Origin: Candidatus Woesearchaeota archaeon
Lineage (GTDB): Archaea > Nanobdellota > Nanobdellia > Woesearchaeales > BM511
DNA length: 64,000 nucleotides
NCBI GenBank assembly: GCA_018221135.1
Contig: JAAOYB010000050.1
Span: 527-64,526, forward strand
Direction of reading: 5' to 3'
Below the pieces are notes generated by a model. The model had not been told where the DNA came from, ran no database searches, and was given only the letters and a program-made list of their open reading frames with translations. How positions within the stretch are numbered: position 1 is the first letter of the stretch; every line of letters begins with the position of its first letter. Below are positions 4,715 through 64,000 of this stretch, piece by piece. The position numbers were made by a program, and so were the translations under genes.

Positions 4715-6616
4715 TTGGTTTTTATACAAAAAGCGCTTTACATAGATGCTAATAATAAGAGTTCTAAAACAAAAAAAATAGATGCTCCAGAAATCATGGG
4801 CCCAGTCGATTTTGGGGTTAGAGAATACGAAAAAGACAAATCAGTTTTTTGCTTTGGAACCGGGATTCTTTCAGGAAGCATAATCCCAGGTACTAGGCGT
4901 TTGGTGTTCACAGGTCTTAGCCCATTATGGAAAAATTTCTATATCAGTACTATGGGCGGCGCTGCTTACGTCTTTCATCGTTTGGGCATAAACTATGTGA
5001 GTATAAAAGGAAAAACTCCCAATCTTAGCGTCTTAGAAATAAACAGGAAAAAAGGAAAATTAAGCGTTTCTTTCCACGACATAAGCCCTGATAAGATATG
5101 GGAGGGTTACAAAAAAGAAATCGGTGTTTACGCGCTCCAACAATACATATATGATAATTACGCAAAGAATTTCAAAGATGATTGCAGGATACTAATAACT
5201 GGTCCTGCGTCTCAAAGAACTAATTACGGCGCCATCGCTAGCGCTCCTATCGGACGTGACGGCGTGATAAGCCACGTTGATTGCTGGGCTGGCAGAGGCG
5301 GGTTTGGAAGCAAATTATTACAAGACCACAATGTTGTAGGCATCATTTACGGAGGAGACTTCGAAGAAGACAAATCCTCACCGCTAAAAGACGTTAAACT
5401 AATAGATTCAGTCTTCGAAGAAGGCATGGGTAAGAGGATGATGGCAGCTGATATGGACGCAACCACTAAGTATCGCTACGACCCTAGTTTTAAGAGCGGA
5501 GGAACCCTCGGCGTTAATTTTAGCAGGCTTAAGAGTTGGATGTTTAGTTTTAATTACGGCTCGGTTAAGTTCTCAGAAGGGCAACGCTTAGAATTATGGG
5601 AAGAATTCATACAAAACCATTACTTAAAACAATTCAACGAAGAAACAATACAGACAAAACAACAAAAGCATTGCGGGGAGCCTTGCCCCGCGGTTTGCAA
5701 GAAGATGAATGATAAATACAAAAAAGATTACGAGCCATACGAAGCGCTCGGACCTAACATGGGCGTTTTTGACCAGCGAGCCGCTGAGAAGCTTAATCGC
5801 TTTGCTGACGCGATGGGTTTTGACGCTATACAAATAGGAAGCGTTATTAGCTTCGTAGCCGAAGCGATAAACCAAGCATTAATACCTAAAGAAGACTTAG
5901 GTCTTAGTATCACTCCTAATTTCTCAAAAGAAAACTTTGACGTATTAACAGATAGTATGAACAACGCCGACTTCGGAGTGGAACTCATCAAAAAAATAGT
6001 TTATGACCATGAATGTGTTAGTCTTAGAAAAGGCTTGCGAGTCGCTGCAAAAGAATTAGACCAAAAATACCCCGGGGTTCTCAACCTAGCGGTTTACAAC
6101 GCTTTCGGAGAGGATGGCTGCATAGTTCCTAACCAGTACTGGGTTCCAGGAATGTTCAGCCCCATGCCTATAATGGGTAAGTACTTTGAGTATTACGGAG
6201 CTAATTATTTACCGCCAAGAGAGCTTGGCAAAAAAAACGTTGAGCGTATGATCCTCGAATTATATAGTGATAACGGAGGGATTTGCAGGTTTCACCGAGA
6301 ATGGGTTGAGAAATTATTAGAGCCATTAGTAAAAAAAGTATTAAAAGTAGATGTTGCGTATCGAATCAAAGATTATCATAGCCATCATAAAAGATTAGCT
6401 CAACTCATCAACCTAGGTAACAAGCCCGTTTTTTGGGAGACTGAGCGCGTAGTTGACATAATAAAGGCTTACTTAGAAAAAGTCTACGAATGCGAAGAAG
6501 AACACAAAGAAGAAGTACGAGCTTGGGTTGAGAAGTTCGAAGCTGATAAGTGGGAAGCAGCCAAGTTGTACTGGGAAGAATTAAAAGATGGTATGAACGA
6601 AGCATTCAGCGACTAA
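4715..6616 (+). CDS. aldehyde:ferredoxin oxidoreductase (AOR) family protein, tungsten/molybdopterin type
   Basis: AOR N-domain-like 'GRGGFGSKLLQD'; central 'CGEPCPAVCKK ... EPYEALGPNMGVFD' resembles the AOR 4Fe-4S Cys motif followed by GPEYE...G.N.G..D; ~630 aa. Confidence 0.55.
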   Translation: MVFIQKALYIDANNKSSKTKKIDAPEIMGPVDFGVREYEKDKSVFCFGTGILSGSIIPGTRRLVFTGLSPLWKNFYISTMGGAAYVFHRLGINYVSIKGKTPNLSVLEINRKKGKLSVSFHDISPDKIWEGYKKEIGVYALQQYIYDNYAKNFKDDCRILITGPASQRTNYGAIASAPIGRDGVISHVDCWAGRGGFGSKLLQDHNVVGIIYGGDFEEDKSSPLKDVKLIDSVFEEGMGKRMMAADMDATTKYRYDPSFKSGGTLGVNFSRLKSWMFSFNYGSVKFSEGQRLELWEEFIQNHYLKQFNEETIQTKQQKHCGEPCPAVCKKMNDKYKKDYEPYEALGPNMGVFDQRAAEKLNRFADAMGFDAIQIGSVISFVAEAINQALIPKEDLGLSITPNFSKENFDVLTDSMNNADFGVELIKKIVYDHECVSLRKGLRVAAKELDQKYPGVLNLAVYNAFGEDGCIVPNQYWVPGMFSPMPIMGKYFEYYGANYLPPRELGKKNVERMILELYSDNGGICRFHREWVEKLLEPLVKKVLKVDVAYRIKDYHSHHKRLAQLINLGNKPVFWETERVVDIIKAYLEKVYECEEEHKEEVRAWVEKFEADKWEAAKLYWEELKDGMNEAFSD

Positions 6617-6618
6617 TC

Positions 6619-8022
6619 TTATTCATTGTTTAGTTTTCTTATCTTGTGCCCCAACCAAATAATTGCTACTATATTAGCGGTTGCTCCGCCTATCACCATT
6701 GACCAAGCAACGCTTAGATACCCAAAGCCTAGTACGAAAACAAATATGTAACCAAGAGGTATCGCGACTAACACCGTTCTTACCAAGTTTATTATAAGTC
6801 CTGGCAAACCATACCCCATTCCTTGCATCGCGCGACTAATAATCATGCCAACAGCCATTAAAGGAAAAGTCAAGGTGTCTATCCTAAGATAAGGAGCTCC
6901 TAAGCTTAGGAGGTTTTGGTCTGGTGTGAATATTCTAAGAAACAGTTTAGGAAACAAAAAGAAAACAACACCTATCAGCGTTGTGAAAAGAACTGCTCTG
7001 CTAATAGCAAACCACACAATGCTTTTTAACAAGTCGTAGCGTTTAGCTCCAAAAAACATACCCACTAGTGTAAGTGTTCCTATACTAAAAGCGACTATTG
7101 GCATTATAGCTACGCTCTCAAGGCGAAAAGCCATACCTGCCGCGGCTACGTAATCAACCCCGAAATGGGAGAGGTACCTATTCAAAAATATTATGTATAA
7201 ACTCATCAAAAGCATCATAACCGTTGCCGGCGCTCCTACTGTGAACATCTCCTTTATTATTTTTGGACTAAAACTAAAACTCTTAGTTGTTAGTTTCAGA
7301 TAAGACTTCTTCCTAAGAGTGTATATGTATATTACTAAGCCGATAAAAAAACTGATGACTGTTGCCATAGCGGCGCCTCTAACACCAAAACCCAAGTAGT
7401 ATATGAATATTGGGTCGAGTATGATGTTTATGACAAGGCTCGTTATTTGTATCTTCATAGGAGTCTTGGTGTCTCCTTGAGAGATAAAAAAGTGATTTAT
7501 CATAAATGAGGGGAACATAAAAAATACGCCGATGAGTATTATCCTCATGTACCCTACTGATAATGGAAGGACTTCTTTTGTGGCTCCAAACAAATTAAAC
7601 ATTGGCTCCATAACCAGGTTCCCTACTAAGAAAATTATTAGTGCTAAGCCAATACTAATAAATAATCCGTGAATCGCCGTGTTCTCTGCGTCATCTTTTT
7701 TCTTTGCGCCTAAAAACCTGCTGATAAGGCTTCCCATACCAGCTCCGAGACCGCTGTTAAGAGCGATTAAAATAAAGAATAATGGGAAGCTAAATGTTAG
7801 AGCTGCAATTGCTTCTGCGCCGAGTCTTCCAACAAAAGCCGTGTCTACTATGTTGTACGCGGTTTGGACCATCATCGCGATGATTATTGGAAGCGCGATT
7901 GTGAACAAAGCTTTTTTTGGATTCTTAATGAACTCATCAACTCTGTTCTTCTCAGTCATCCTATGAAGTTTTGGCAGATGCCTTATAAGTTTTTGGTTTA
8001 AGCCAAAGCTTTTTAAATTCAT
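6619..8022 (-). CDS. MATE/MOP-superfamily efflux transporter
   Basis: 12-TM-like hydrophobic profile; N-terminal MATE signature 'ALPIIIAMMVQTAYNIVDTAFVGRLGAEAIAAL'. Confidence 0.65.
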   Translation of the reverse strand: MNLKSFGLNQKLIRHLPKLHRMTEKNRVDEFIKNPKKALFTIALPIIIAMMVQTAYNIVDTAFVGRLGAEAIAALTFSFPLFFILIALNSGLGAGMGSLISRFLGAKKKDDAENTAIHGLFISIGLALIIFLVGNLVMEPMFNLFGATKEVLPLSVGYMRIILIGVFFMFPSFMINHFFISQGDTKTPMKIQITSLVINIILDPIFIYYLGFGVRGAAMATVISFFIGLVIYIYTLRKKSYLKLTTKSFSFSPKIIKEMFTVGAPATVMMLLMSLYIIFLNRYLSHFGVDYVAAAGMAFRLESVAIMPIVAFSIGTLTLVGMFFGAKRYDLLKSIVWFAISRAVLFTTLIGVVFFLFPKLFLRIFTPDQNLLSLGAPYLRIDTLTFPLMAVGMIISRAMQGMGYGLPGLIINLVRTVLVAIPLGYIFVFVLGFGYLSVAWSMVIGGATANIVAIIWLGHKIRKLNNE

Positions 8023-8861: not shown

Positions 8862-10346
8862 ATGGTTTACGAAAAAGAAACAATAAAAGTAAAAGGTATG
8901 ACTTGTACTAGTTGCGAAGACATAATAAAAAAAGAAGTAACAAAAAATAAAGGCGTAAAAAGTTTTGAGATTGATTACGCAACCCAGATAGGCCTAGTAA
9001 GTTTTGACCCAGAAAAAACAAGTATGAAAAAAATACTGGGAATAATTGAAGAAGCTGGTTACAACCCAAAGATTATAGGGGGGAAAGCTGAAAAAGATTT
9101 TAGTGGTTCCTATGCTATTAACAAAAAAGTAGTAGGGTACGCTATAGGAATAGTTGGGTTTTTATTAATCGCGTATTTCGTTTTTGGAATAGTTGATACA
9201 GTAAGGCTTCCTCAAATAAGCCAGAACATGGGTTACGGCTTGTTATTATTAGTGGGGTTACTCACTGGTTTTCATTGTGTTAGTATGTGTGGAGGATTCG
9301 TTCTCGGATACACCACAAAGAACTCTAAAGAAGGAAAAAGCAATTATAATGATCATTTCATGTACGGAGCAGGGAAAACAATATCGTACACAATAATAGG
9401 GGCGGGGTTTGGATTACTGGGTTCAATATTTGCTTTCACACCTCTCATGAGAGGAGTAGCAGGCATCTTAGCAGGATTATTTTTAATAATTTTTGGTCTT
9501 AACATGCTCGGATTCTTATCGCCTCTTAGACGTCTCAGACTAAGAACACCAAAGTTCGTATCACGTTTTGTTCGAACCGAATCCACTAAGCACAAAAGCC
9601 CACTTGTTATTGGTTTGCTTAACGGATTAATGATTGCGTGCGGACCACTCCAAGCAATTTATATCATGGCCGCAGGAACCGGGAGCGCGTTAGAAGGCGC
9701 AAAAGTGTTGTTCTTATTCGGTTTAGGAACATTGCCTGTCATGCTCGGTTTTGGTTTCTTAGCGAGTTTTCTGAGCAACAAAGCCACCAATAAAATACTA
9801 AAAGCGAGCGGTTTTGTAGTCATACTACTTGGTGTCATAATGGTTAATAGAGGCTTGGCTCTTAGCGGTACCGGATTTGATACTAACACCTTAGTTGCTA
9901 ACGTATTAGCTAGTAACGACGCATCTTTAACAGATGAAGGAAGCGCTTTAGAATTCGAAGATGGTTACCAAATTATTAGGATGACTGTTAATAGGTATGG
10001 TTGGGAACCAGACAAATTCGTACTAAAAAAAGGTGTTCCTACCAAGTGGATTATTGATGGCGTAGAGATTAATGGTTGTAACAACGCAATCCAAGTACCA
10101 AAATACAACTTAAAATTCGACGTTGAGTACGGCGAGCAAGTAATTGAGTTCACACCAACAAAAGAAGGAGTGATTAGTTGGAGTTGTTGGATGGGCATGA
10201 TACCTGGAGTCTTCGTTGTAAAAGAAGATATTGATTTAAGCGATGCTTCCGCGGTGCAAGGCGCTCTTGAAGAAGTAGTCGTCCCAAGCGGGGGAAGCTG
10301 TGGCGGCGGAGGCGGCGGTGGTTGTGGCTGCGGAGGAGGAAGATGA
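8862..10346 (+). CDS. HMA domain / DsbD_2 (TauE-like) membrane permease / cupredoxin-like domain fusion with C-terminal Gly-Cys-rich tail
   Basis: N-terminal 'GMTCTSCE' HMA; TM core with 'GFHCVSMCGGFVLGY' and 'ACGPLQAIYIMAAG'; C-terminal beta-rich 'WSCWMGMIPGVFVV' cupredoxin_1-like; tail 'SCGGGGGGGCGCGGG'. Confidence 0.65.
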   Translation: MVYEKETIKVKGMTCTSCEDIIKKEVTKNKGVKSFEIDYATQIGLVSFDPEKTSMKKILGIIEEAGYNPKIIGGKAEKDFSGSYAINKKVVGYAIGIVGFLLIAYFVFGIVDTVRLPQISQNMGYGLLLLVGLLTGFHCVSMCGGFVLGYTTKNSKEGKSNYNDHFMYGAGKTISYTIIGAGFGLLGSIFAFTPLMRGVAGILAGLFLIIFGLNMLGFLSPLRRLRLRTPKFVSRFVRTESTKHKSPLVIGLLNGLMIACGPLQAIYIMAAGTGSALEGAKVLFLFGLGTLPVMLGFGFLASFLSNKATNKILKASGFVVILLGVIMVNRGLALSGTGFDTNTLVANVLASNDASLTDEGSALEFEDGYQIIRMTVNRYGWEPDKFVLKKGVPTKWIIDGVEINGCNNAIQVPKYNLKFDVEYGEQVIEFTPTKEGVISWSCWMGMIPGVFVVKEDIDLSDASAVQGALEEVVVPSGGSCGGGGGGGCGCGGGR

Positions 10347-10807
10347 GAAAAGAACTCCTTTTTTTAATTATTATAAGCGCGTCCTTAATTATTACTGGGT
10401 GCACATCAAGTAACAGCGATGGTCTAAGCGGAAAAGTAGCCAGTGACTTAGGAAGCTCAGGAGATGGTTTTGTTAGTATTCCTCTAAGCGACTTATCAAG
10501 TACTTCTAAGTTCTACGAATACGAAGTCGGAGGAGTTAAAGTAAAGTACTTCGCTGTTCTTGGAAGCGACGGAGCGCCAAGAACTGCTTTTGATGCTTGC
10601 GATGTGTGCGGAGGAAGCAAAGGATACCAACAAATAGGAAGCGATATTCGATGCAGAAACTGCGGAAGAGTGTTCAGCATTGACGGCTTAGGAAGCAAAA
10701 ATAAAGGTTATGGTTGTTGGCCTAGTTACTTACCACACCAAGTAGTAGGTGATGACGTCTTATTAAACATAAACGATATAAAAGCAGGCAGTTACAGATT
10801 CGCCTAA
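10343..10807 (+). CDS. Cys-rich lipoprotein (zinc-ribbon-like 'CDVCGG...CRNCG' metal-binding domain)
   Basis: Start ATG overlaps upstream stop (ATGA); lipobox-like 'LIITGC'; four Cys in two CxxC pairs. Confidence 0.5.
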   Translation: MRKELLFLIIISASLIITGCTSSNSDGLSGKVASDLGSSGDGFVSIPLSDLSSTSKFYEYEVGGVKVKYFAVLGSDGAPRTAFDACDVCGGSKGYQQIGSDIRCRNCGRVFSIDGLGSKNKGYGCWPSYLPHQVVGDDVLLNINDIKAGSYRFA

Positions 10808-10946
10808 AAAAAAGATATTGATATGAGGTAAAAAAATAAAATGGTAAAAGATGATGAGTACCTAAAAATAAACAAAGTGGTTTTGTGGCAAGGCGCTACA
10901 GCAATATTAGGAATTCTTTTGATAATCTCAGTTTACACCGGGGGTT

Positions 10947-11624
10947 TTGGAGGAAAAAATGATTCTGCTTCTTGGTAGAGTAGTTGATGATCAAAAAAAC
11001 TTAGAAGCGGCTAAGCCGGCTCAGCCAAGCCAGCCTAGCCCTTCGCCCATCCCTACTCCAAGTCCCAGCGCGGCTCCTACTCCGAGTCCGAATCTTTATA
11101 TGAAGACATTAATCGATGACGACGCAGTAAAAGGGGATCCTAACGCGGTGGTGACTATTGTTGAGTGGAGCGATTTTGAATGCCCGTTCTGTGCTAGGTT
11201 TTATTCAGAGACGCTAGGACAAATACTTAGTGAGTACGTCGATACTGGCAAAGTTAAGTTTGTGTATAGGGATTACCCTCTTAGTTTCCATCCTCAAGCT
11301 CAAAAAGCCGCTGAGGCTGCGGAGTGCGCAGGTGAACAAGATAAGTATTTTGAGATGCATGACTTATTATTTGAGAAAGGCGTAAAAGGAGGCGTTGCTA
11401 GTTTTAAGCAGTTCGCGTCTGACATAGGTCTTGACACAGCGAAGTTTAATACTTGTCTGGATACTGGTGCTATGGCGTCTGAAGTAGCTAAGGATATGAG
11501 AGATGGTCAAAGCCTTGGTATTCGAGGAACACCCGGCTTCATCATTAATGGTCAACTAGTTAGCGGGGCTCAGCCTTTCAGCGCGTTTAAACAAGTAATC
11601 GATGCCAAACTAGCACAAGGATAA
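10947..11624 (+). CDS. DsbA-family thiol:disulfide oxidoreductase (thioredoxin fold, 'CPFC'); N-terminal TM anchor appears to lie in another frame (10841..10978)
   Basis: 'WSDFECPFCARFY' active site; Pro/Ser-rich linker; upstream 45-aa TM-containing ORF 10841..10978 in -1 frame joined across an A6 run. Confidence 0.7.
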   Translation: MEEKMILLLGRVVDDQKNLEAAKPAQPSQPSPSPIPTPSPSAAPTPSPNLYMKTLIDDDAVKGDPNAVVTIVEWSDFECPFCARFYSETLGQILSEYVDTGKVKFVYRDYPLSFHPQAQKAAEAAECAGEQDKYFEMHDLLFEKGVKGGVASFKQFASDIGLDTAKFNTCLDTGAMASEVAKDMRDGQSLGIRGTPGFIINGQLVSGAQPFSAFKQVIDAKLAQG

Positions 11625-11631
11625 AAAAAAC

Positions 11632-11666
11632 TTTTTGTTTTTTTTTCTCTTATTTTTTTGATTTTG
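11632..11666 (+). terminator. oligo-T tract after dsbA-like gene, putative terminator
   Basis: T-rich 35-nt run following stop at 11624. Confidence 0.3.
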
Positions 11667-11693
11667 CAGGAAGTTTCAGATTCACTTAAACGT

Positions 11694-11710
11694 AACATTT
11701 AAATATTTGA
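11694..11710 (+). promoter_or_regulatory. putative archaeal TATA box / palindromic operator 'ATTTAAATATTT' upstream of arsR (leaderless arrangement)
   Basis: TATA-like palindrome ~25 nt upstream of ATG 11728. Confidence 0.35.
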
Positions 11711-11727
11711 ACAACTATTCAACTATT

Positions 11728-12072
11728 ATGGATGTGGAAACAATAAAAAAAATTAAGCAGTTTTTTACTGCGCTATCAGATGAAACTCGTCTAAAAATTT
11801 TATTAGAGCTTATAAAAAGTCCAAAGAATGTAAATGAGATTCATAAAGCAATTCCAAACATAACTCTTTCAGCTGTTTCACATCAACTAAAACAAATGAA
11901 AGATATAGACATAATTTTTTATGAAAGAAAAGGAAGAGAAAAAATTTATTCTTTATCTGAAAAATTTTGTTGGTGTATACTTCGTGATGCTACAAATCAT
12001 TTTAAAAGAGGCGGAAAAAACTGTCCTCATTGCATAGAAATGCAAAAAGAGCATATTAAAAAAAGTAAATGA
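11728..12072 (+). CDS. ArsR/SmtB-family metal-responsive transcriptional regulator
   Basis: HTH 'LSDETRLKILLELIKSPKNVNEI...LSAVSHQLKQMKD'; C-terminal 'CPHC'; ATG at 11728 preferred over track TTG at 11707; gene is markedly more AT-rich than its neighbours. Confidence 0.75.
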   Translation: MDVETIKKIKQFFTALSDETRLKILLELIKSPKNVNEIHKAIPNITLSAVSHQLKQMKDIDIIFYERKGREKIYSLSEKFCWCILRDATNHFKRGGKNCPHCIEMQKEHIKKSK

Positions 12073-12088
12073 GTGTTGAGGTTTTCAA

Positions 12089-14293
12089 ATGAGTAAAAAA
12101 AGTGTTAATATTAAGGGTATGCACTGCGCTAGTTGCGTTTTTAGAGTAGAAAAAGCTATTAAGACAGTTGAAGGAGTCAGCAATGCTAATGTTAACTTAG
12201 CAACTCACAAAGCAAGTTTTGATCTAAGCGATGAAGCTAACCTTGAAAAAGTGGCGGTTGCTATCAAAAAATCTGGGTACGACGCGCAAATAGCGCAAGA
12301 AGCAAAAACAAATGATGATTCTGAAAAATTAGAAAGAGAAAAAGAAATCAACACACTTAAGACAAAAACTTATACTGCTTTGCTATTAAGTATTCCTCTT
12401 CTTTACTTCGCCATGGGAGCTCACGTCGGCCTACCAACTTTTTTTAGTGGTAAAACCATGGCGTTAGTACAATTCTTGATAACTACTCCTATAATACTTG
12501 TTGGTTACGAGTTTTACACTAAAGGTTTTATGAGCGTATATAAAGCCAAGACTGCTAATATGGACACCTTAGTAGCGGTTGGCACTGGAAGCGCGTATGT
12601 TTACAGCGTGGCCTCTAGTATCATCGGAAATTATGACAGCTTGTTTTTTGAAACCGCTGGAATCCTTATAGCATTCATACTCCTAGGCAGGTATTTAGAG
12701 GCTAACGCCAAGGGTAAGACTAGTGAAAGCATCAAGAAATTGATGGGTTTAAAAGCCAAGACAGCCATTGTTATCAGGGGCAAAAAAGAGTTAGAAATCC
12801 CAATTGATGAAGTAGTAGTAGGAGACATCGTACTTGTAAAACCAGGTCAAAAAATCCCTGTTGACGGCGTAGTCATAAACGGTCACTCATCAGTTGATGA
12901 ATCCATGATTAGTGGAGAGAGCATCCCTGTTGAGAAAACTAAAGGCGACAAAGTAGTTGGGGCAACGATTAACAAAACAGGGAGTTTTAAGTTTAAAGCA
13001 ACTGGGGTTGGAAGCGACACAGTCCTAGCTCAGATAATAAAATTAGTAGAAGAAGCACAAGGAAGCAAAGCCCCCATTCAAAAACTTGCTGATGTCATAG
13101 CAGCTTATTTTGTGCCAGTAGTTATTAGCATAGCAATTATTAGTAGCGGAATATATTTTTTTGTTAACGGATTCGCTTTTGCTCTCTCAATATTCGTGGC
13201 TGTCTTAATCATTGCGTGTCCGTGTGCTTTAGGTCTTGCTACGCCAACAGCGATAATCGTTGGCACAGGACTAGGAGCAGAGAACGGAGTGCTTTTTAAG
13301 AGCGCTGAGAGCCTTCAAGAAACAAGAAAGATAAGCGCTTTAGTCTTTGACAAAACAGGCACTATCACAAAAGGAGAACCAGAAGTAACAGACGTGATTA
13401 ATTTTAATAAGTTTAGTGATAGAGAAGTCTTAAGATTCGCAGGCATAGCTGAGAAGAACTCCGAGCACCCTTTAGCCGACGCGGTTCTAAAAGCTACTAA
13501 GAAGAAAAAAATAAGTGTTGTCAGCCCATCTAGTTTTAATAGCATCACAGGAAAAGGCGTGGTTGCCAACCTAAAAAAAGACAAGATAATCATAGGTAAA
13601 ATCTCCTTATTAAAAGAGCACTCAATAAGCACTAAAAAAGCAGAAGACTCTGTTTCAAAACTTGAAAGCCAAGGAAAAACTGTTATCTTAGTAGGCAAGA
13701 ACAAAGAATTAATTGGGGTGATAGGAGTAGCAGATACTTTAAAACCTCATAGCAAAGAAGCAATACAAACAATTAACTCTTTAGGAATCGATACTTTCAT
13801 GATAACAGGAGATAATAATAAGACCGCTAACGCAATCGCTAAACAAGTAGGCATCAAAAATGTAATCGCTGAGGTGATGCCAAACCAGAAAGCCTCCGAG
13901 ATTAGAGGTCTTCAAGAAAGCTATCTAAGCGTTGGGATGGTAGGTGACGGGATCAACGACGCCCCTGCATTATCCCAATCAGACGTGGGCTTCGCAGTTG
14001 GTAGCGGGACAGACGTAGCAATTGAATCTGGAGACGTCGTATTAGTAAGAGATGACCTTCGAAGCGTGCTTACCAGCATCGAATTATCAAAGTATACTTT
14101 TAGAAAAATAAAACAGAACTTGTTCTGGGCGTTTTTTTATAACGTGCTTGGAATCCCCTTAGCAGCAGGTGTTCTTTACCCTTTCACCGGGTTTTTATTA
14201 AATCCCATCATCGCTGGTGGAGCCATGGCGTTTAGCAGTGTGAGCGTTGTTAGTAACACATTACTTATGAAGAATTACAAAGCCAAGTTTTAA
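12089..14293 (+). CDS. copA: copper-translocating P1B-type ATPase CopA
   Basis: N-terminal HMA 'GMHCASCV'; 'CPC' in TM6 '[11 protein letters not shown]'; 'DKTGTIT'; 'GDGINDAP'; 734 aa. Confidence 0.92.
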
Positions 14294-24036: not shown

Positions 24037-25209
24037 ATGGTTGAAAAAATATTTTTTACAAGTGAAAGCGTCACAGAAGGACACCCAGACAAAGTCTGCG
24101 ACCAAATCTCAGACGCAATACTAGACGCAGTGTACGCCGAAGACCCAAACGCGAGAGTCGCAATCGAGACCCTAGTAAAAACAGGTTTCGTAATAGTCGC
24201 AGGAGAATTAACGACAACAGCGTATATCGAAATCCAAAACGTTGTACGAGACACCCTAAAAGAAATAGGTTACGACTCAGGCAAAGCTGGTTTTAACGGA
24301 GAAACTTGCGGAGTTCTATTAGCTATTAGCGAACAAAGCCCTGATATTAGCCAAGGAGTAAGCGAAGGAGAAGCACAAGGCAAAGAAGGAGCAGAACAAG
24401 GAGCAGGAGACCAAGGAATGATGTTTGGATACGCGACAAACGAAACCCCTGAACTCATGCCGCTACCTATAACACTAGCTCAAAAACTAACTATGAAACT
24501 TGCAGAGATAAGAAAAAAAGGTGAATTAAATTATCTTATGCCTGATGGTAAAAGCCAAGTAACCGTCGAGTATGATGATGGAAAACCAACCAGGGTAGAC
24601 GCTGTTGTTATCTCAACGCACCACGCAGAAAACGTAACTCAAGAACAAATAAGAGAAGACGTAATAGCAAAGATAATCAAACCAGTATGTGGTGATTACT
24701 TAGATTCGAACACCAAAATCTTTGTTAACCCAACAGGAAAATTCGTTGTTGGAGGACCAGTAGCAGACGCTGGAGTCACAGGTAGAAAAATCATTGTTGA
24801 CACCTATGGCGGGATGGGGCGTCACGGCGGAGGAGCGTTCTCAGGAAAAGACCCTTCAAAAGTAGATAGGAGCGCTGCTTACATGACTAGGTACATCGCA
24901 AAGAACATAGTCGCGGCAGGCCTTGCTGATAGGTGCGAAGTTCAACTAAGCTACGCTATCGGAGTCGCTGAGCCTGTAAGCGTATTAGTTGACACGTTTG
25001 GAACCGGCAAAATAAGTGAATCAGAGCTTAGCAAGTTAATCAGGGGAAACTTCGGATTAAAACCTGCAGAGATCATCGAAGCGCTTAATCTTAGACGACC
25101 AATCTATAAGAAAACAGCTTCGTACGGGCACTTTGGTCGCGAAGGAAACGAGTTTACTTGGGAGAAAACCGATAAAGTAGAAGCATTAAAAAACGCAGCT
25201 TCCAAATAA
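24037..25209 (+). CDS. metK: S-adenosylmethionine synthetase, bacterial/eukaryal MetK type
   Basis: '[24 protein letters not shown]', '[12 protein letters not shown]', '[19 protein letters not shown]' canonical MetK motifs. Confidence 0.92.
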
Positions 25210-55802: not shown

Positions 55803-56897
55803 CTATTTTTTAATCTTTTTTATTTGTTCAAAAACGTCTTCGACTTCGTCATCGCTTATCTTGTCGAGTTTCTCAAAAATCTGCTTTTTTTGTGCTACTC
55901 CGCTTCTTTGCTCCTCAAGATTTTTTCTAAGCTGATTTTTTAATTCTCGTCTTTTATGAAGGTAATCCAGGACTTCTTTTCTTGTTTTCCTCTCTTGGAG
56001 AACACTTAATTCTTCTCCTTTTACCTCCTTGTCAAAGTAGTCAAAGAAATCTTTTACTTCGTTCTCCCTTTTTTGTTGGCCGAGTTTTCGAAGAAGTGAC
56101 TCCGGGCTCCCTCTTGTTTCTTTTGCATAGAACGGGATGTTTTTCTTAGAACTTTTTTCTTCTTCCTTTACTTTTTGTTCTTGTGCCACCTTTTGTTCTT
56201 CTTCTATTTTTTCTTGGGTTTTCTTTTTGAATTTGCTGTTTGGGCCAAGCAAAGAAAAATAAGCTTTTTCAAATATGCTTATCGTGTTTTGATAAGTTTT
56301 TTCTAAGAACTGGTTTATTTTGTTCAAGTCAACCCCTTTTAGGTTTATCTTAAAACCGACTTTTTTTTGTGGTGTTTTTATTTCTTCTTGCATGAGTTCT
56401 TCTTTTTCTTGTTCTTGATTTTGCATGATTTCTTGTTTCTTTTTTGTTTCTTGCATTATTTCCTTGTCTTTTTTTCTGCTAACCAAGAAATACACGAATA
56501 AGAGAACTGCTAATAAGACGCTAAGAACAGGTATTAAGATGTTTATAGAAGTCTGAAAATTAATCGGGCTATACTTATTATTTGGGTTTGTCCCAAGCTC
56601 GTTTTCTTTTTTATCATTGTATCCGTCCCCATCACTGTCTGGATTGGTCGGGTTTGTGCCAAGAGTTGCTTCTTGAAGGTCTAATAAGCCATCATTATCA
56701 GTATCGAGTTGGGAATTGCTAAGTTGGGGGTTGAGACCGTTTTCTTTTTCGTATTCGTCGCTTAATCCGTCGTTGTCAAAGTCGTATTTATACTTGTCTT
56801 TCTCATCTGGTATCCCATCACGATCACTATCTAAACCTAGTGCTACACTTGAGAACAAAAATACTAATATTAGTAATATGCCGACCTCTTTTTTCAT
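55803..56897 (-). CDS. membrane protein with extracellular thrombospondin-type-3-like Ca-binding repeats and cytoplasmic K/E-rich coiled coil
   Basis: Signal peptide; repeated 'D.D.DG..D' ('DSDRDGIPD', 'DFDNDGLSD', 'DTDNDGLLD', 'DSDGDGYND'); single TM; charged tail. Confidence 0.5.
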
Positions 56898-62252: not shown

Positions 62253-62299
62253 AATAATAAAAAGTTTTATATAGGAGTCTAGAACACTATTTTCTTTAT

Positions 62300-62926
62300 A
62301 TGATTAAGAAGATTTTTAGTAAATTCTTTGGTGGGATATTTCGCAAAAGAAAAGCTTTCAAGCTAGGATTATACGGTCCTCCAAACGGTGGGAAGACAAC
62401 TCTTGCTAACAAGATTTGTCAAGATTGGTTAGGTGAAGAGATGGGTAAAGTCTCAAACGTAGCGCACGAAACTAGAGAGATTCAGATAAAAGAACAAATC
62501 GTTCTAAAAAATAAGGGAAAAGAATTAACATTTAACTTAGTAGACACCCCTGGTATCGCTACAAAAATTGATTACGAGGACTTCTTAAAATTTGGGCTTA
62601 AAGAAAAAGAAGCAAAAGAACGAGCTAAAGAAGCCACTAAAGGAATAATTGACAGTATTAAGTGGCTTGATGACATGGACGCAGTAGTCGTGGTCTTAGA
62701 CGCGACAAAAGACCCGTACACCCAAGTAAACATCACAATTATTGGGAACCTACAAGCAAGAGACATACCAGTTCTTATTATTGGTAACAAAACCGACCTT
62801 AAAAAAGCCGATATTAAAAAAGTCGAATCAGCTTTTCCTCAATACAAAGTAATTGGGATAAGCGCAAAAAAAGGAGATAACGTTGATAAGTTTTATGATG
62901 AATTATTTAAGGTATCAAAAAAATAA
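62300..62926 (+). CDS. small GTPase (archaeal COG2229-like) with N-terminal amphipathic helix
   Basis: G1 'GPPNGGKTT', G3 'DTPG', G4 'NKTD', G5 'SAK'. Confidence 0.7.
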   Translation: MIKKIFSKFFGGIFRKRKAFKLGLYGPPNGGKTTLANKICQDWLGEEMGKVSNVAHETREIQIKEQIVLKNKGKELTFNLVDTPGIATKIDYEDFLKFGLKEKEAKERAKEATKGIIDSIKWLDDMDAVVVVLDATKDPYTQVNITIIGNLQARDIPVLIIGNKTDLKKADIKKVESAFPQYKVIGISAKKGDNVDKFYDELFKVSKK

Positions 62927-62950
62927 ATAAGAAAAAGAGGAAATTATAAG

Positions 62951-63349
62951 ATGTTAACACTTCAATTCGTGCCGTATTCAAGCATCGCTGATCTAAGCAG
63001 TATTGGAAGGATTAAAAAGCTTCTTAAGATGGCTAAAGAAGACAAGATAGTCTTATTAGAGGGTCGTCTTAGAAAAGAAGAAGAAGCAGAGCTTATCAAA
63101 ACCACAATGGAAGAAATCGATGATGAGTTTAAAGGTATAGAATTAGCTGTTATTGATCCTGAGACTAGCAACCAAAAAGGCTTAGACAAATTCAGAGCAA
63201 TCCTTGCAAAGACTCTTCTTGGAGACCGTCAAGGCATGACCATTATTGGCCCTGCGAGTATTATTAAAGAAATAAAACTTGACCCTAACAAAATCCAGTT
63301 ATTCACTCAAGAAGCACAGAAAAAAATAACTAAGAAAAAAAAGAAATAA
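62951..63349 (+). CDS. conserved archaeal protein co-occurring with the GTPase (DUF2073-like)
   Basis: Position in the GTPase triad; ~130 aa. Confidence 0.4.
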   Translation: MLTLQFVPYSSIADLSSIGRIKKLLKMAKEDKIVLLEGRLRKEEEAELIKTTMEEIDDEFKGIELAVIDPETSNQKGLDKFRAILAKTLLGDRQGMTIIGPASIIKEIKLDPNKIQLFTQEAQKKITKKKKK

Positions 63350-63402
63350 AAACCTTTTTTTAGATAGTTTTTTATAATCTCTTAATTTATTTTGTTCTTA
63401 AT

Positions 63403-63777
63403 ATGCCTCACCAATGCGTTAGATGTAACACGTTCTATGATGATGGAGCTCAAGAAATACTAAAAGGTTGTAGTTGTGGTGCTAAACTCTTCTTTTATGT
63501 TAAAAAAGAAAAGATGCAAAAAGCGCTCGATATGGTTGAGCAATTAACCAAGGAAGAGAAGTCTCAGATGGAACACGACGTCTTTGACATAATTGGTGAA
63601 AAAGAAAAAGAAGAAAAACCTGTAGTTCTTGATTTCGAAGCAGTAAACGTAGTAAAACCTGGGAAGTACGAAATTGATATAGTTAAAGTCATGAAACAAG
63701 ACCCGCTCATCTACAGAGTCGGAGAAGGAAAATATATGATTGACTTAAAAGAAGCCTTCAAAGACAAAAAAGAATAA
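63403..63777 (+). CDS. zinc-ribbon protein (DUF2072-like), third member of the GTPase triad
   Basis: 'CVRCN...CSCG' N-terminal Zn ribbon; ~124 aa. Confidence 0.45.
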   Translation: MPHQCVRCNTFYDDGAQEILKGCSCGAKLFFYVKKEKMQKALDMVEQLTKEEKSQMEHDVFDIIGEKEKEEKPVVLDFEAVNVVKPGKYEIDIVKVMKQDPLIYRVGEGKYMIDLKEAFKDKKE

Positions 63778-63999
63778 TTAAAACCAGTCAAAAATACTAT
63801 CTTCTTTTTTCTTTCGTGTTGTCTTTTTCTTGGTTGTTTTCTTTTTAGTAGGTTTTTTCTTTGAAACTGTAACCGTAACCATCTTATAGATAGGTTCTCC
63901 AAAAATAGTTTCACCTACTTTTCTTTTCACTTTTTTTGGTTTAGATGCTTCTTTTTTCTCTTTTAATTTACCATATTTTTCTGGATATGTTTGCTTTAA
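63778..63999 (-). CDS. partial (3' end) Lys-rich hypothetical protein; gene continues beyond window end
   Basis: Manual translation of minus strand: ...GETIFGEPIYKMVTVTVSKKKPTKKKTTKKK...DSIFDWF*; convergent with 63403..63777. Confidence 0.3.
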   Translation of the reverse strand, partial: LKQTYPEKYGKLKEKKEASKPKKVKRKVGETIFGEPIYKMVTVTVSKKKPTKKKTTKKKTTRKKKEDSIFDWF

Positions 64000-64000
64000 A

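Follow-up and report, generated by a model that had tools for sequence, protein, structure and literature searches.

Identity and organization of the locus

Three consecutive genes in a Woesearchaeota DPANN MAG, encoding a small GTPase, a DUF2073-like protein and a zinc-ribbon protein, raise the question of what such a gene set does in the cell. They lie in a stretch of 64,000 nucleotides (64 kb), hereafter the window, and a sequence-only reading of it had assigned them to a conserved archaeal triad whose function remained unknown, while guessing at a GTPase switch that associates with the membrane and has partners regulating it. Judged by Pfam families, motif spacing, gene order and published taxon tables, the triad is the Woesearchaeota ortholog of the Haloferax volcanii HVO_3014/3013/3012 operon, which has been named OapABC (2019), ArvABC (2024, for vesicle formation) and DipABC/ArcoABC (two 2026 preprints); the Arv names are used here. 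The GTPase ArvA is recorded in 518 Nanoarchaeota genomes, 256 Woesearchaeales among them, in Dataset S10 of Mills et al. The finding is therefore real, but it was already known and explained from other archaea, and the description of the function as unknown is out of date, because a Min-like mechanism has been published for the orthologs, and the H. volcanii proteins have been studied by knockout, localisation and biochemistry. Those experiments agree with the earlier guess of a switch at the membrane with partners (PMC10927574; PMC13228585; 10.64898/2026.07.23.738820).

The ORF listing of the window places all three genes on the + strand, with exactly the coordinates originally proposed: arvA (dipA, arcoA, oapA) at 62300..62926, encoding a 208-aa small GTPase predicted to bind membranes; arvB (dipB, arcoB, oapB) at 62951..63349, encoding a DUF2073 protein of 132 aa whose alpha/beta core may weakly resemble SepF; and arvC (dipC, arcoC, oapC) at 63403..63777, encoding a 124-aa zinc-ribbon protein of the short, non-halobacterial form. 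The same three families occur in the same order in H. volcanii and A. fulgidus. The ORF coordinates leave spacers of 24 nt between arvA and arvB and 53 nt between arvB and arvC, compared with medians of 14 nt and approximately 4 nt in 80 relatives, which makes the B-C spacer unusually long.

Archaeal control signals were read by eye and with simple motif counts, in which the arvC starts of the 80 loci are approximate. A TATA-like box, TTTATATA, located 26 nt 5' of the arvA ATG (62266..62273, + strand), is a putative operon promoter that would yield a leaderless or near-leaderless transcript, and a TATA-like motif precedes arvA by 18-45 nt in 55/80 related loci. Within the 24-nt spacer a Shine-Dalgarno-like AGAGGA (62936..62941, + strand) lies 10 nt 5' of arvB, which is preceded by an SD-like motif in 64 of the 80 loci. 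The arvB-arvC spacer contains a run of seven T residues (63355-63361) and a TATA-like TTTTTTATAA (63368-63377), together occupying 63355..63377 of the + strand, and from the letters alone these may be an attenuating terminator followed by a second promoter for arvC.

Linkage of the three genes across related genomes

The proposal of a linked triad was examined in 80 species-level genomes, using a scan that was anchored on ArvA and that returned only Woesearchaeota/Nanoarchaeota-type loci. ArvB lies downstream of ArvA in every one of the 80 and is immediately adjacent in 79, and ArvC follows ArvB in 79/80 loci, the lone exception being a contig edge, so that linkage is essentially complete where its absence would have spoken against the triad. 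No other neighbor of the triad in the window recurs among the 80 related loci, and the commonest neighbor within 6 kb of the triad is found in 34 of them. A tblastn search of plasmids with ArvA and ArvC gave zero matches. Together with the Pfam matches described below, this linkage bears out the conserved archaeal GTPase/DUF2073/DUF2072 triad.

ArvA, a GTPase with an amphipathic N-terminus

The claim that the 208-aa GTPase carries all G motifs was borne out by motif reading, which located on the + strand G1/Walker A GPPNGGKT (residues 26-33; 62375..62398), G3/Walker B DTPG (residues 82-85; 62543..62554), the G4 guanine-specificity motif NKTD (residues 163-166; 62786..62797) and G5 SAK (residues 188-190; 62861..62869). 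G1, G3 and G5 are invariant in 47 homologs, as are N163, K164 and D166 of G4. The G1-to-G3 offset is 56 residues, equal to that of H. volcanii DipA (GPPNAGKT 31-38, DTPG 87-90; PMC13228585), and the GPPNxGKT/DTPG spacing of DipA/ArcoA is thus identical here. Mean column identity is 82% in the 47 homologs and median identity is 76% across the 80 species-level genomes, while the exact G1 or G3 peptide is common to at least 594 genomes; the protein itself is 100% identical to an NCBI entry annotated as "GTP-binding protein [Candidatus Woesearchaeota archaeon]".

Upstream of the G domain is a 20-residue basic and hydrophobic extension that starts MIKKIFSKFFGGIFRKRKAFK (residues 1-20; 62300..62359, + strand), which hydrophobic-moment analysis predicts to be a membrane-targeting amphipathic helix like that of DipA/ArcoA. 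The peak helical hydrophobic moment of the extension is 0.69, compared with 0.47 +/- 0.15 for shuffles, and since 9% of shuffles are as high, this single N-terminus gives only moderate support to the helix that had been proposed. The extension is present in the 47 homologs with a median moment of 0.76 and a net charge of +5 to +10, the property being kept while the sequence is variable. In H. volcanii, residues 1-20 of ArcoA are necessary for membrane binding and are sufficient for it in tandem (10.64898/2026.07.23.738820).

Placement of ArvA in the literature is inconsistent, as it has been called Arf-like, sister to SR-beta, or "Era-like". The best Pfam match is MMR_HSR1 (1.7e-14), and the Arf family (PF00025) gives a partial match covering only residues 123-171 at 19.4 bits (E 8e-4), below its cut-off of 22.3, so membership in that family was rejected; SRPRB is also under its Pfam cut-off (17.7 bits versus 25). 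Assignment as Era or Der itself was likewise rejected: the NCBIfam models score 54.5 bits versus a cut-off of 237 for Era and 56 versus 306.7 for Der, and ArvA is a single 208-aa G domain without a KH domain. In PDB profile matches Der (1.9e-8) is better than Arf (1.7e-4). By sequence, ArvA is nearer to Era/Der/TrmE-type GTPases than to Arf; like the members of both groups it is a P-loop GTPase with NKxD specificity, and it resembles Era and Der in the G1 and G3 motifs and in the top HMM matches, and Arf/Sar1 in its N-terminal amphipathic helix.

ArvB and ArvC

The middle protein is a member of Pfam PF09846 (OapB, equivalent to DUF2073), matched at 3.9e-19 and 69 bits, well over the cut-off of 27, as the DUF2073 assignment had anticipated. 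Its sequence includes an amphipathic linker helix that is variable (approximately residues 75-90), a block LLGDRQGxTIIGPA that is conserved, and a polybasic tail at the C-terminus. A roadblock/LC7 or longin fold had been suggested for this protein, and both were rejected, as its top structural neighbors are SepF domains, including 3ZIG, which was also the structural neighbor reported for H. volcanii ArvB (PMC10927574). This fold match is weak: Foldseek gave no significant SepF match, and neither the PDB profile search nor Pfam linked ArvB to SepF by sequence at E <= 10. IF3-C, Alba and Pop6 are among its lower-ranking fold matches. The orthologs DipB/ArcoB are likewise DUF2073 proteins of approximately 130 aa, and it is their SepF-like core that ArvB may share. 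ArvB differs from SepF in lacking its N-terminal membrane helix and in carrying an additional C-terminal beta-alpha unit with the conserved GxTIIGPA block. An internal basic amphipathic loop or helix of the B protein binds membranes in H. volcanii (85-99) and A. fulgidus (73-85), whereas the helix at the equivalent position in the Woesearchaeota clade is moderately amphipathic (moment 0.57) and non-basic, with a net charge of approximately 0, and it is the C-terminal tail that is polybasic (median +6).

The third protein belongs to Pfam PF09845 (OapC, equivalent to DUF2072), with an E-value of 8.7e-24 and 84.7 bits versus a cut-off of 23, in line with the DUF2072 zinc-ribbon assignment; its N-terminus reads MPHQCVRCN...GCSCG. 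The zinc-ribbon ligands C5, C8, C23 and C25 (63415..63477, + strand) lie inside an invariant MPHQCxxC...GCxCG, and their CxxC-x14-CxC spacing is found in 77/80 ArvC homologs. Comparison of homologs also defines a conserved C-terminal domain at residues 73-119 (PVVLDxE...PGKYExD...P...GxGKYxID; 63619..63759, + strand), and conservation along the protein (0.86/0.58/0.78) shows conserved termini and a variable center, as in DipC/ArcoC. The length of 124 aa compares with 131.5 +/- 19.6 aa reported for non-halobacterial DipC, which has the same pattern of termini and center (PMC13228585), whereas H. volcanii ArvC is approximately 330 aa long and contains an extended disordered region where the protein described here has a charged helical linker. 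Mills et al. proposed an ArfGAP zinc finger for ArvC; this was rejected on sequence grounds for the Woesearchaeota protein, which has no ArfGap match at E <= 10 and has a CxxC-x14-CxC arrangement, unlike the CxxC-x16-CxxC finger with its catalytic Arg.

A probable Min-like model for division-site positioning

The reading we consider probable is that the triad acts in Min-like division-site positioning, a mechanism carried over from experiments with proteins of H. volcanii and Archaeoglobus fulgidus. In this mechanism GTP-bound ArvA would use its basic amphipathic helix at the N-terminus to associate with the cytoplasmic membrane, and would recruit the zinc-ribbon ArvC, which would stop FtsZ1 polymerisation at the sites occupied by ArvA. 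A dimeric, SepF-like ArvB would bind ArvA, speed GTP hydrolysis and free ArvA from the membrane. Given membrane binding, ArvC recruitment and ArvB-driven release, ArvA and ArvB would constitute a self-organising Min-like reaction-diffusion pair that holds the FtsZ inhibitor off the future division site, and disturbing ArvABC would also alter the release of extracellular vesicles and minicells. The experimental basis includes phenotypes of knockout and overexpression for the H. volcanii orthologs (PMC10927574); oscillation of the Dip proteins, minicells, liposome binding that depends on GTP, and the stimulating and releasing action of DipB (PMC13228585); and inhibition of FtsZ1 by ArcoC, A-B and A-C binding, and mapped membrane helices (10.64898/2026.07.23.738820). 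The functional experiments were all made on Halobacteria and Archaeoglobi, and both oscillator papers are preprints. For the present locus we infer by orthology GTP-dependent membrane binding, GTPase activation and release by B, inhibition of FtsZ1 by C, and oscillation. None of the ORFs annotated in the 64-kb window encodes an FtsZ/tubulin family member.

The comparison with bacterial MinCDE, which is argued in the preprints, is one of functional analogy only, in which the nucleotide-dependent membrane binder MinD corresponds to ArvA, the releasing activator MinE to ArvB, and the passenger FtsZ inhibitor MinC to ArvC. There is no relationship between the two systems in sequence or fold: MinD is a ParA/MinD ATPase whereas ArvA belongs with the Ras/Era-like P-loop GTPases, and ArvB is weakly SepF-like, not MinE-like.

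The oscillation was seen in H. volcanii, whereas the host here is a sub-micron DPANN archaeon. An unlikely variant of the positioning model is that the Woesearchaeota module is a static or stochastic membrane-polarity switch, and not a pole-to-pole oscillator, that might pick a single site of division or budding, or the site of host contact or vesicle release. Such a switch would fit the minimal ArvC, which at 124 aa has no long disordered region, the replacement of a basic internal ArvB helix by a polybasic C-terminal tail, and the unusual constraint on ArvA that is evident in its median identity and widely shared G1 or G3 peptides.

Alternative functions

A different primary role, in extracellular-vesicle formation or budding, was the one originally put forward for ArvABC; it would make ArvA an Arf/Sar-like GTPase that deforms the membrane by inserting its helix, ArvB its activator and ArvC a negative regulator, and we give it a small but appreciable chance; it is compatible with the division-positioning model and not exclusive of it. 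In H. volcanii the arvA and arvB knockouts produce 2.9-fold and 3.1-fold fewer vesicles, arvA overexpression 3.5-fold more and the arvC knockout 1.65-fold more, and ArvA is enriched in the vesicles, but ArvB and ArvC were not detected in them (PMC10927574). Later work found FtsZ mis-placed and minicells formed in each of the three knockouts, and found that the proteins oscillate. The vesicle counts may in part reflect division defects. While the N-terminal amphipathic helix of the Woesearchaeota ArvA and the reliance of DPANN cells on membrane contact with hosts would suit a vesicle role, ArvA matches MMR_HSR1 and Der better than Arf, for which its Pfam score is under the cut-off, and ArvC gives no ArfGAP match.

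Public annotations as "50S ribosome-binding GTPase" and "nucleic acid-binding Zn-ribbon protein" point instead to an Era/Der-like module for ribosome assembly or some other RNA-associated function, with which the MMR_HSR1 top match, Der, Era and TrmE as the closest solved relatives by sequence, the IF3-C, Alba and Pop6 fold matches of ArvB and the very high conservation of ArvA are all consistent. The G1 and G3 peptides of ArvA (GPPNGGKT, DTPGI) are also similar to Era-type motifs. The annotation, however, only names a generic domain, and every NCBIfam equivalog model scores far under its cut-off; furthermore, the orthologs localize to the membrane and poles, their knockouts are viable with division phenotypes, and the near-complete and specific linkage is to OapB and OapC, not to ribosomal genes, all of which leaves this function very improbable. 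Least probable is a function associated with replication origins, which is what the Pfam names "Origin-associated protein OapB/OapC" imply. The H. volcanii operon adjoins oriC1 and orc1, as later papers cite from Wolters et al. 2019, and DipB binds DNA in vitro, but according to Mills et al. the H. volcanii mutant could not be given a replication function. The Woesearchaeota operon does not adjoin orc1: Orc1/Cdc6 is nowhere in the 64-kb window, the 80 related loci have no recurrent family of Orc1 size within 6 kb of the triad, and origin association was rejected for this lineage. The orc1/oriC adjacency is a haloarchaeal peculiarity and not a defining feature of the three-gene system.

Significance of the DPANN gene set

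The Woesearchaeota locus is a typical DPANN copy of this system and does not add a new kind of thing to it, though it allows the annotations "GTP-binding protein", "hypothetical protein" and "50S ribosome-binding GTPase" to be replaced by a specific name. The system itself is important: it is an apparent archaeal counterpart of bacterial Min that uses unrelated proteins, and connections have been drawn from it to vesicle formation and to how eukaryotic membrane GTPases arose. Structural and reconstitution work may profit from the DPANN versions, which are very compact and highly conserved and have a short ArvC, and they raise the question of how a geometry-sensing oscillator would operate in cells only a few hundred nanometres wide.

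Organization and conserved linkage of the arvABC triad

The three genes lie on the + strand, with the GTPase gene arvA at 62300-62926 (208 aa), arvB, which encodes the DUF2073 protein, at 62951-63349 (132 aa), and the zinc-ribbon gene arvC at 63403-63777 (124 aa); the ORF coordinates and sizes of the sequence-only reading were exact. ArvA and ArvC each have a 100% identical counterpart among the NCBI proteins of a Candidatus Woesearchaeota archaeon. The public gene call for ArvB (P0121) is a 126-aa protein with a GTG start at 62969, which is six codons too late and omits 62951-62968: the conserved LTLQF at residues 2-6 is covered by 80/80 aligned homologs, and the ATG at 62951 is preceded, at a distance of 10 nt, by an AGAGGA motif.

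When species were scanned, each represented by a single genome, with the peptides YGPPNGGK or LVDTPGIAT as signature, at least 594 genomes proved to have an ArvA relative carrying one of them, and the best 80 loci are without exception of Woesearchaeota/Nanoarchaeota type. In 79/80 loci arvB is immediately 3' of arvA, and in the one other locus a 223-nt gap separates the two, with no gene between them; arvC immediately follows arvB in 79/80, the sole exception being a contig end. The two downstream proteins, which the sequence-only reading allowed might prove unlinked to the GTPase, are clearly linked to it. ArvA is 74 to 84% identical over more than 120 clusters, with a mean column identity of 82% in a 47-sequence alignment, and ArvB and ArvC are less conserved (56% each). 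The window's other neighbors (SprT-like, acyltransferase, aRF1, and two unknowns) are present in 0/80 loci. Given the near-complete A-B-C linkage, the short spacers, and the absence of the window's other neighbors from the 80 loci, the triad forms a tightly coupled operon that stands on its own.

Among other flanking families, the one seen most often in the 80 loci is a YchF-like GTPase convergent to the triad (34/80), and two divergent unknown proteins of ~183 and ~230 aa (33/80 each) and a HerA-like ATPase of ~507 aa (25/80) are also found near it, these frequent neighbors sitting ~2.4 kb downstream and 0.8 to 2.5 kb upstream of arvA; none adjoins the triad in the window. There, an ORF of 152 aa, rich in Lys at its C-terminus and weakly matching HNH nucleases, is convergent to the triad and abuts the arvC stop (63778-64000, continuing outside the window; 6572-7030 in locus L001). 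Woesearchaeota-type arvABC with 72 to 78% identity to the window is also carried by MAGs titled "uncultured Methanosarcinales archaeon", "Acidobacteriota bacterium", and "Candidatus Aminicenantes bacterium" (loci L007, L010, L019, L020, L028, L030, and others; L014; and L027), and these species-representative bins look mislabeled or contaminated.

The spacers in the window are 24 nt (A-B) and 53 nt (B-C), compared with medians of 14 nt and ~4 nt in the 80 related loci, where the arvC starts are approximate; an SD-like motif precedes arvB in 64/80 of these loci and a TATA-like box lies upstream of arvA in 55/80. Within the unusually long arvB-arvC spacer of the window (63350-63402) lie a T7 run and a TATA-like box, which raise the possibility of a dedicated arvC promoter and of separate arvC transcription in this genome.

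ArvA is a complete small GTPase

All of G1 (GPPNGGKT, 26-33), G3 (DTPG, 82-85), G4 (NKTD, 163-166), and G5 (SAK, 188-190) are located in ArvA, confirming the complete small GTPase of the sequence-only reading. Residues 1-20 (MIKKIFSKFFGGIFRKRKAF) form a basic, hydrophobic extension whose peak helical hydrophobic moment is 0.69, compared with 0.47 ± 0.15 for permuted versions; since 9% of the permutations reach 0.69, the single ArvA sequence gives only moderate support for the amphipathic helix that had been proposed. Although the sequence of this extension differs among 47 homologs, its amphipathic and basic character is retained (median moment, 0.76; net charge, +5 to +10), as would be expected for a membrane-targeting helix.

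The published GTPase class is inconsistent, being Arf-like by HHpred in one study (Mills et al., PMC10927574), and in another sister to SR-beta in the tree yet "Era-like" in a figure legend (Zheng et al., 10.64898/2026.07.23.738820). The best Pfam model for ArvA is MMR_HSR1 (1.7e-14), with Arf (8e-4) and SRPRB (2.5e-3) both under their cut-offs, and ArvA is far under the cut-off of every NCBIfam equivalog. When the family profile was compared with solved structures, Der, Era, and TrmE ranked first (1.9e-8 to 3e-5), with weaker matches to Arf (1.7e-4) and Arl8A (8.7e-4). On these rankings we do not accept ArvA as a member of the Arf or Era family, but the analogy to an Arf- or MinD-type membrane switch is supported as a description of how it would work.

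ArvB and ArvC

ArvB matches Pfam PF09846 (OapB, formerly DUF2073; 3.9e-19) and ArvC matches PF09845 (OapC, formerly DUF2072; 8.7e-24), both far over the curated cut-offs; neither has a dedicated model in NCBIfam. The roadblock- or longin-like fold suggested for the middle protein is not supported: no roadblock/LC7, longin, or MglB-like structure is among the matches, and the beta-alpha-beta-alpha-beta-alpha-beta-alpha topology is a poor fit to such folds. Likeness to SepF is weak, with no significant Foldseek match (top probability 0.63, for 3zig_A) and no SepF signal in sequence-profile searches.

The membrane-binding loop of the ortholog was mapped to residues 85-99 in H. volcanii and 73-85 in A. 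fulgidus (10.64898/2026.07.23.738820; PMC13228585). That internal loop is basic in euryarchaeal DipB/ArcoB, whereas the equivalent helix in the window ArvB has a moderate moment (0.57), a net charge of ~0, and is not basic, and it is the C-terminal tail that is polybasic (KKITKKKKK; residues 119-132, 63304-63346, + strand). Among Woesearchaeota ArvB homologs the tail is poorly conserved and consistently polybasic, with a median net charge of +6, and it could stand in for the basic internal membrane/DNA-binding loop.

Other genes of the window

The remaining window holds ordinary archaeal housekeeping genes (aRF1, Nop5, aIF5A, GatD/E, Cdc48, RtcB, Cbf5, and others). FtsZ, SepF, and Orc1/Cdc6 were not found among the proteins of the 64 kb, and neither tRNA genes (ARAGORN) nor Rfam families at gathering score were found in 1-64000. 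Archaea usually have a distinct archaeal-type S-adenosylmethionine synthetase, and the bacterial/eukaryotic-type enzyme at 24037-25209 (all three domains of MetK matched, E 1e-43 to 1e-70) may therefore have been acquired horizontally. A metal/thiol cluster at 8862-14293 encodes an HMA-DsbD-like membrane protein, an FtrD-like protein, a DsbA-like thioredoxin, and an HMA P-type ATPase, and a 364-aa protein with bacterial thrombospondin type-3 calcium-binding repeats (55803-56897) is possibly a surface protein.

Relation to the published system

The H. volcanii genes HVO_3014/3013/3012 were named oapABC because they adjoin oriC1 (Wolters et al. 2019, as cited by later papers), were renamed arvABC by Mills et al. 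(PNAS 2024, PMC10927574), and became dipABC (He et al., PMC13228585) and arcoABC (Zheng et al., 10.64898/2026.07.23.738820) in two independent 2026 preprints. The window contains no orc1 gene near the operon, and the name "origin-associated" is therefore inappropriate for this lineage. Motif spacing is identical to that of H. volcanii DipA (GPPNAGKT 31-38, DTPG 87-90; PMC13228585), ArvB is 132 aa compared with 130 aa for DipB, and ArvC, with column identities of 0.86, 0.58, and 0.78 for its N-terminus, center, and C-terminus, shares the conserved ends and variable center of non-halobacterial DipC, which averages 131.5 ± 19.6 aa (PMC13228585). We are highly confident that the window triad is orthologous to this system.

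The function regarded as unknown in the sequence-only reading has since been addressed in orthologs, and its proposal of a membrane-associated GTPase switch with regulatory partners is essentially borne out by experiments on the H. volcanii and A. fulgidus proteins. Both preprints recast the genes as a Min-like oscillator, in which all three proteins oscillate from pole to pole and loss of any one gene leads to mis-placed FtsZ1 and minicells (PMC13228585; 10.64898/2026.07.23.738820). A. fulgidus DipA hydrolyzes GTP and its GTP form binds liposomes via the N-terminal helix, while DipB is a dimer that boosts the GTPase activity of DipA and detaches it from the membrane (PMC13228585); ArcoC attaches to ArcoA and prevents FtsZ1 from polymerizing (10.64898/2026.07.23.738820). 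Vesicle formation is an alternative role that does not exclude division-site positioning: in H. volcanii, vesicles were 2.9-fold fewer on arvA knockout and 3.5-fold more on its overexpression, 3.1-fold fewer on arvB knockout, and 1.65-fold more on arvC knockout (PMC10927574).

The same study reported 1,666 ArvA homologs, spread over 14 archaeal phyla; in 93% of cases ArvB is encoded immediately downstream. In its Dataset S10, Nanoarchaeota account for 518 genomes, and Woesearchaeales for 256 of these (PMC10927574). The system has been described before and its occurrence in this order catalogued, and the window locus is an unremarkable DPANN example of it. Division-site positioning, the role ascribed to its orthologs, probably operates in the window organism as well, although in sub-micron cells it may have to work differently.
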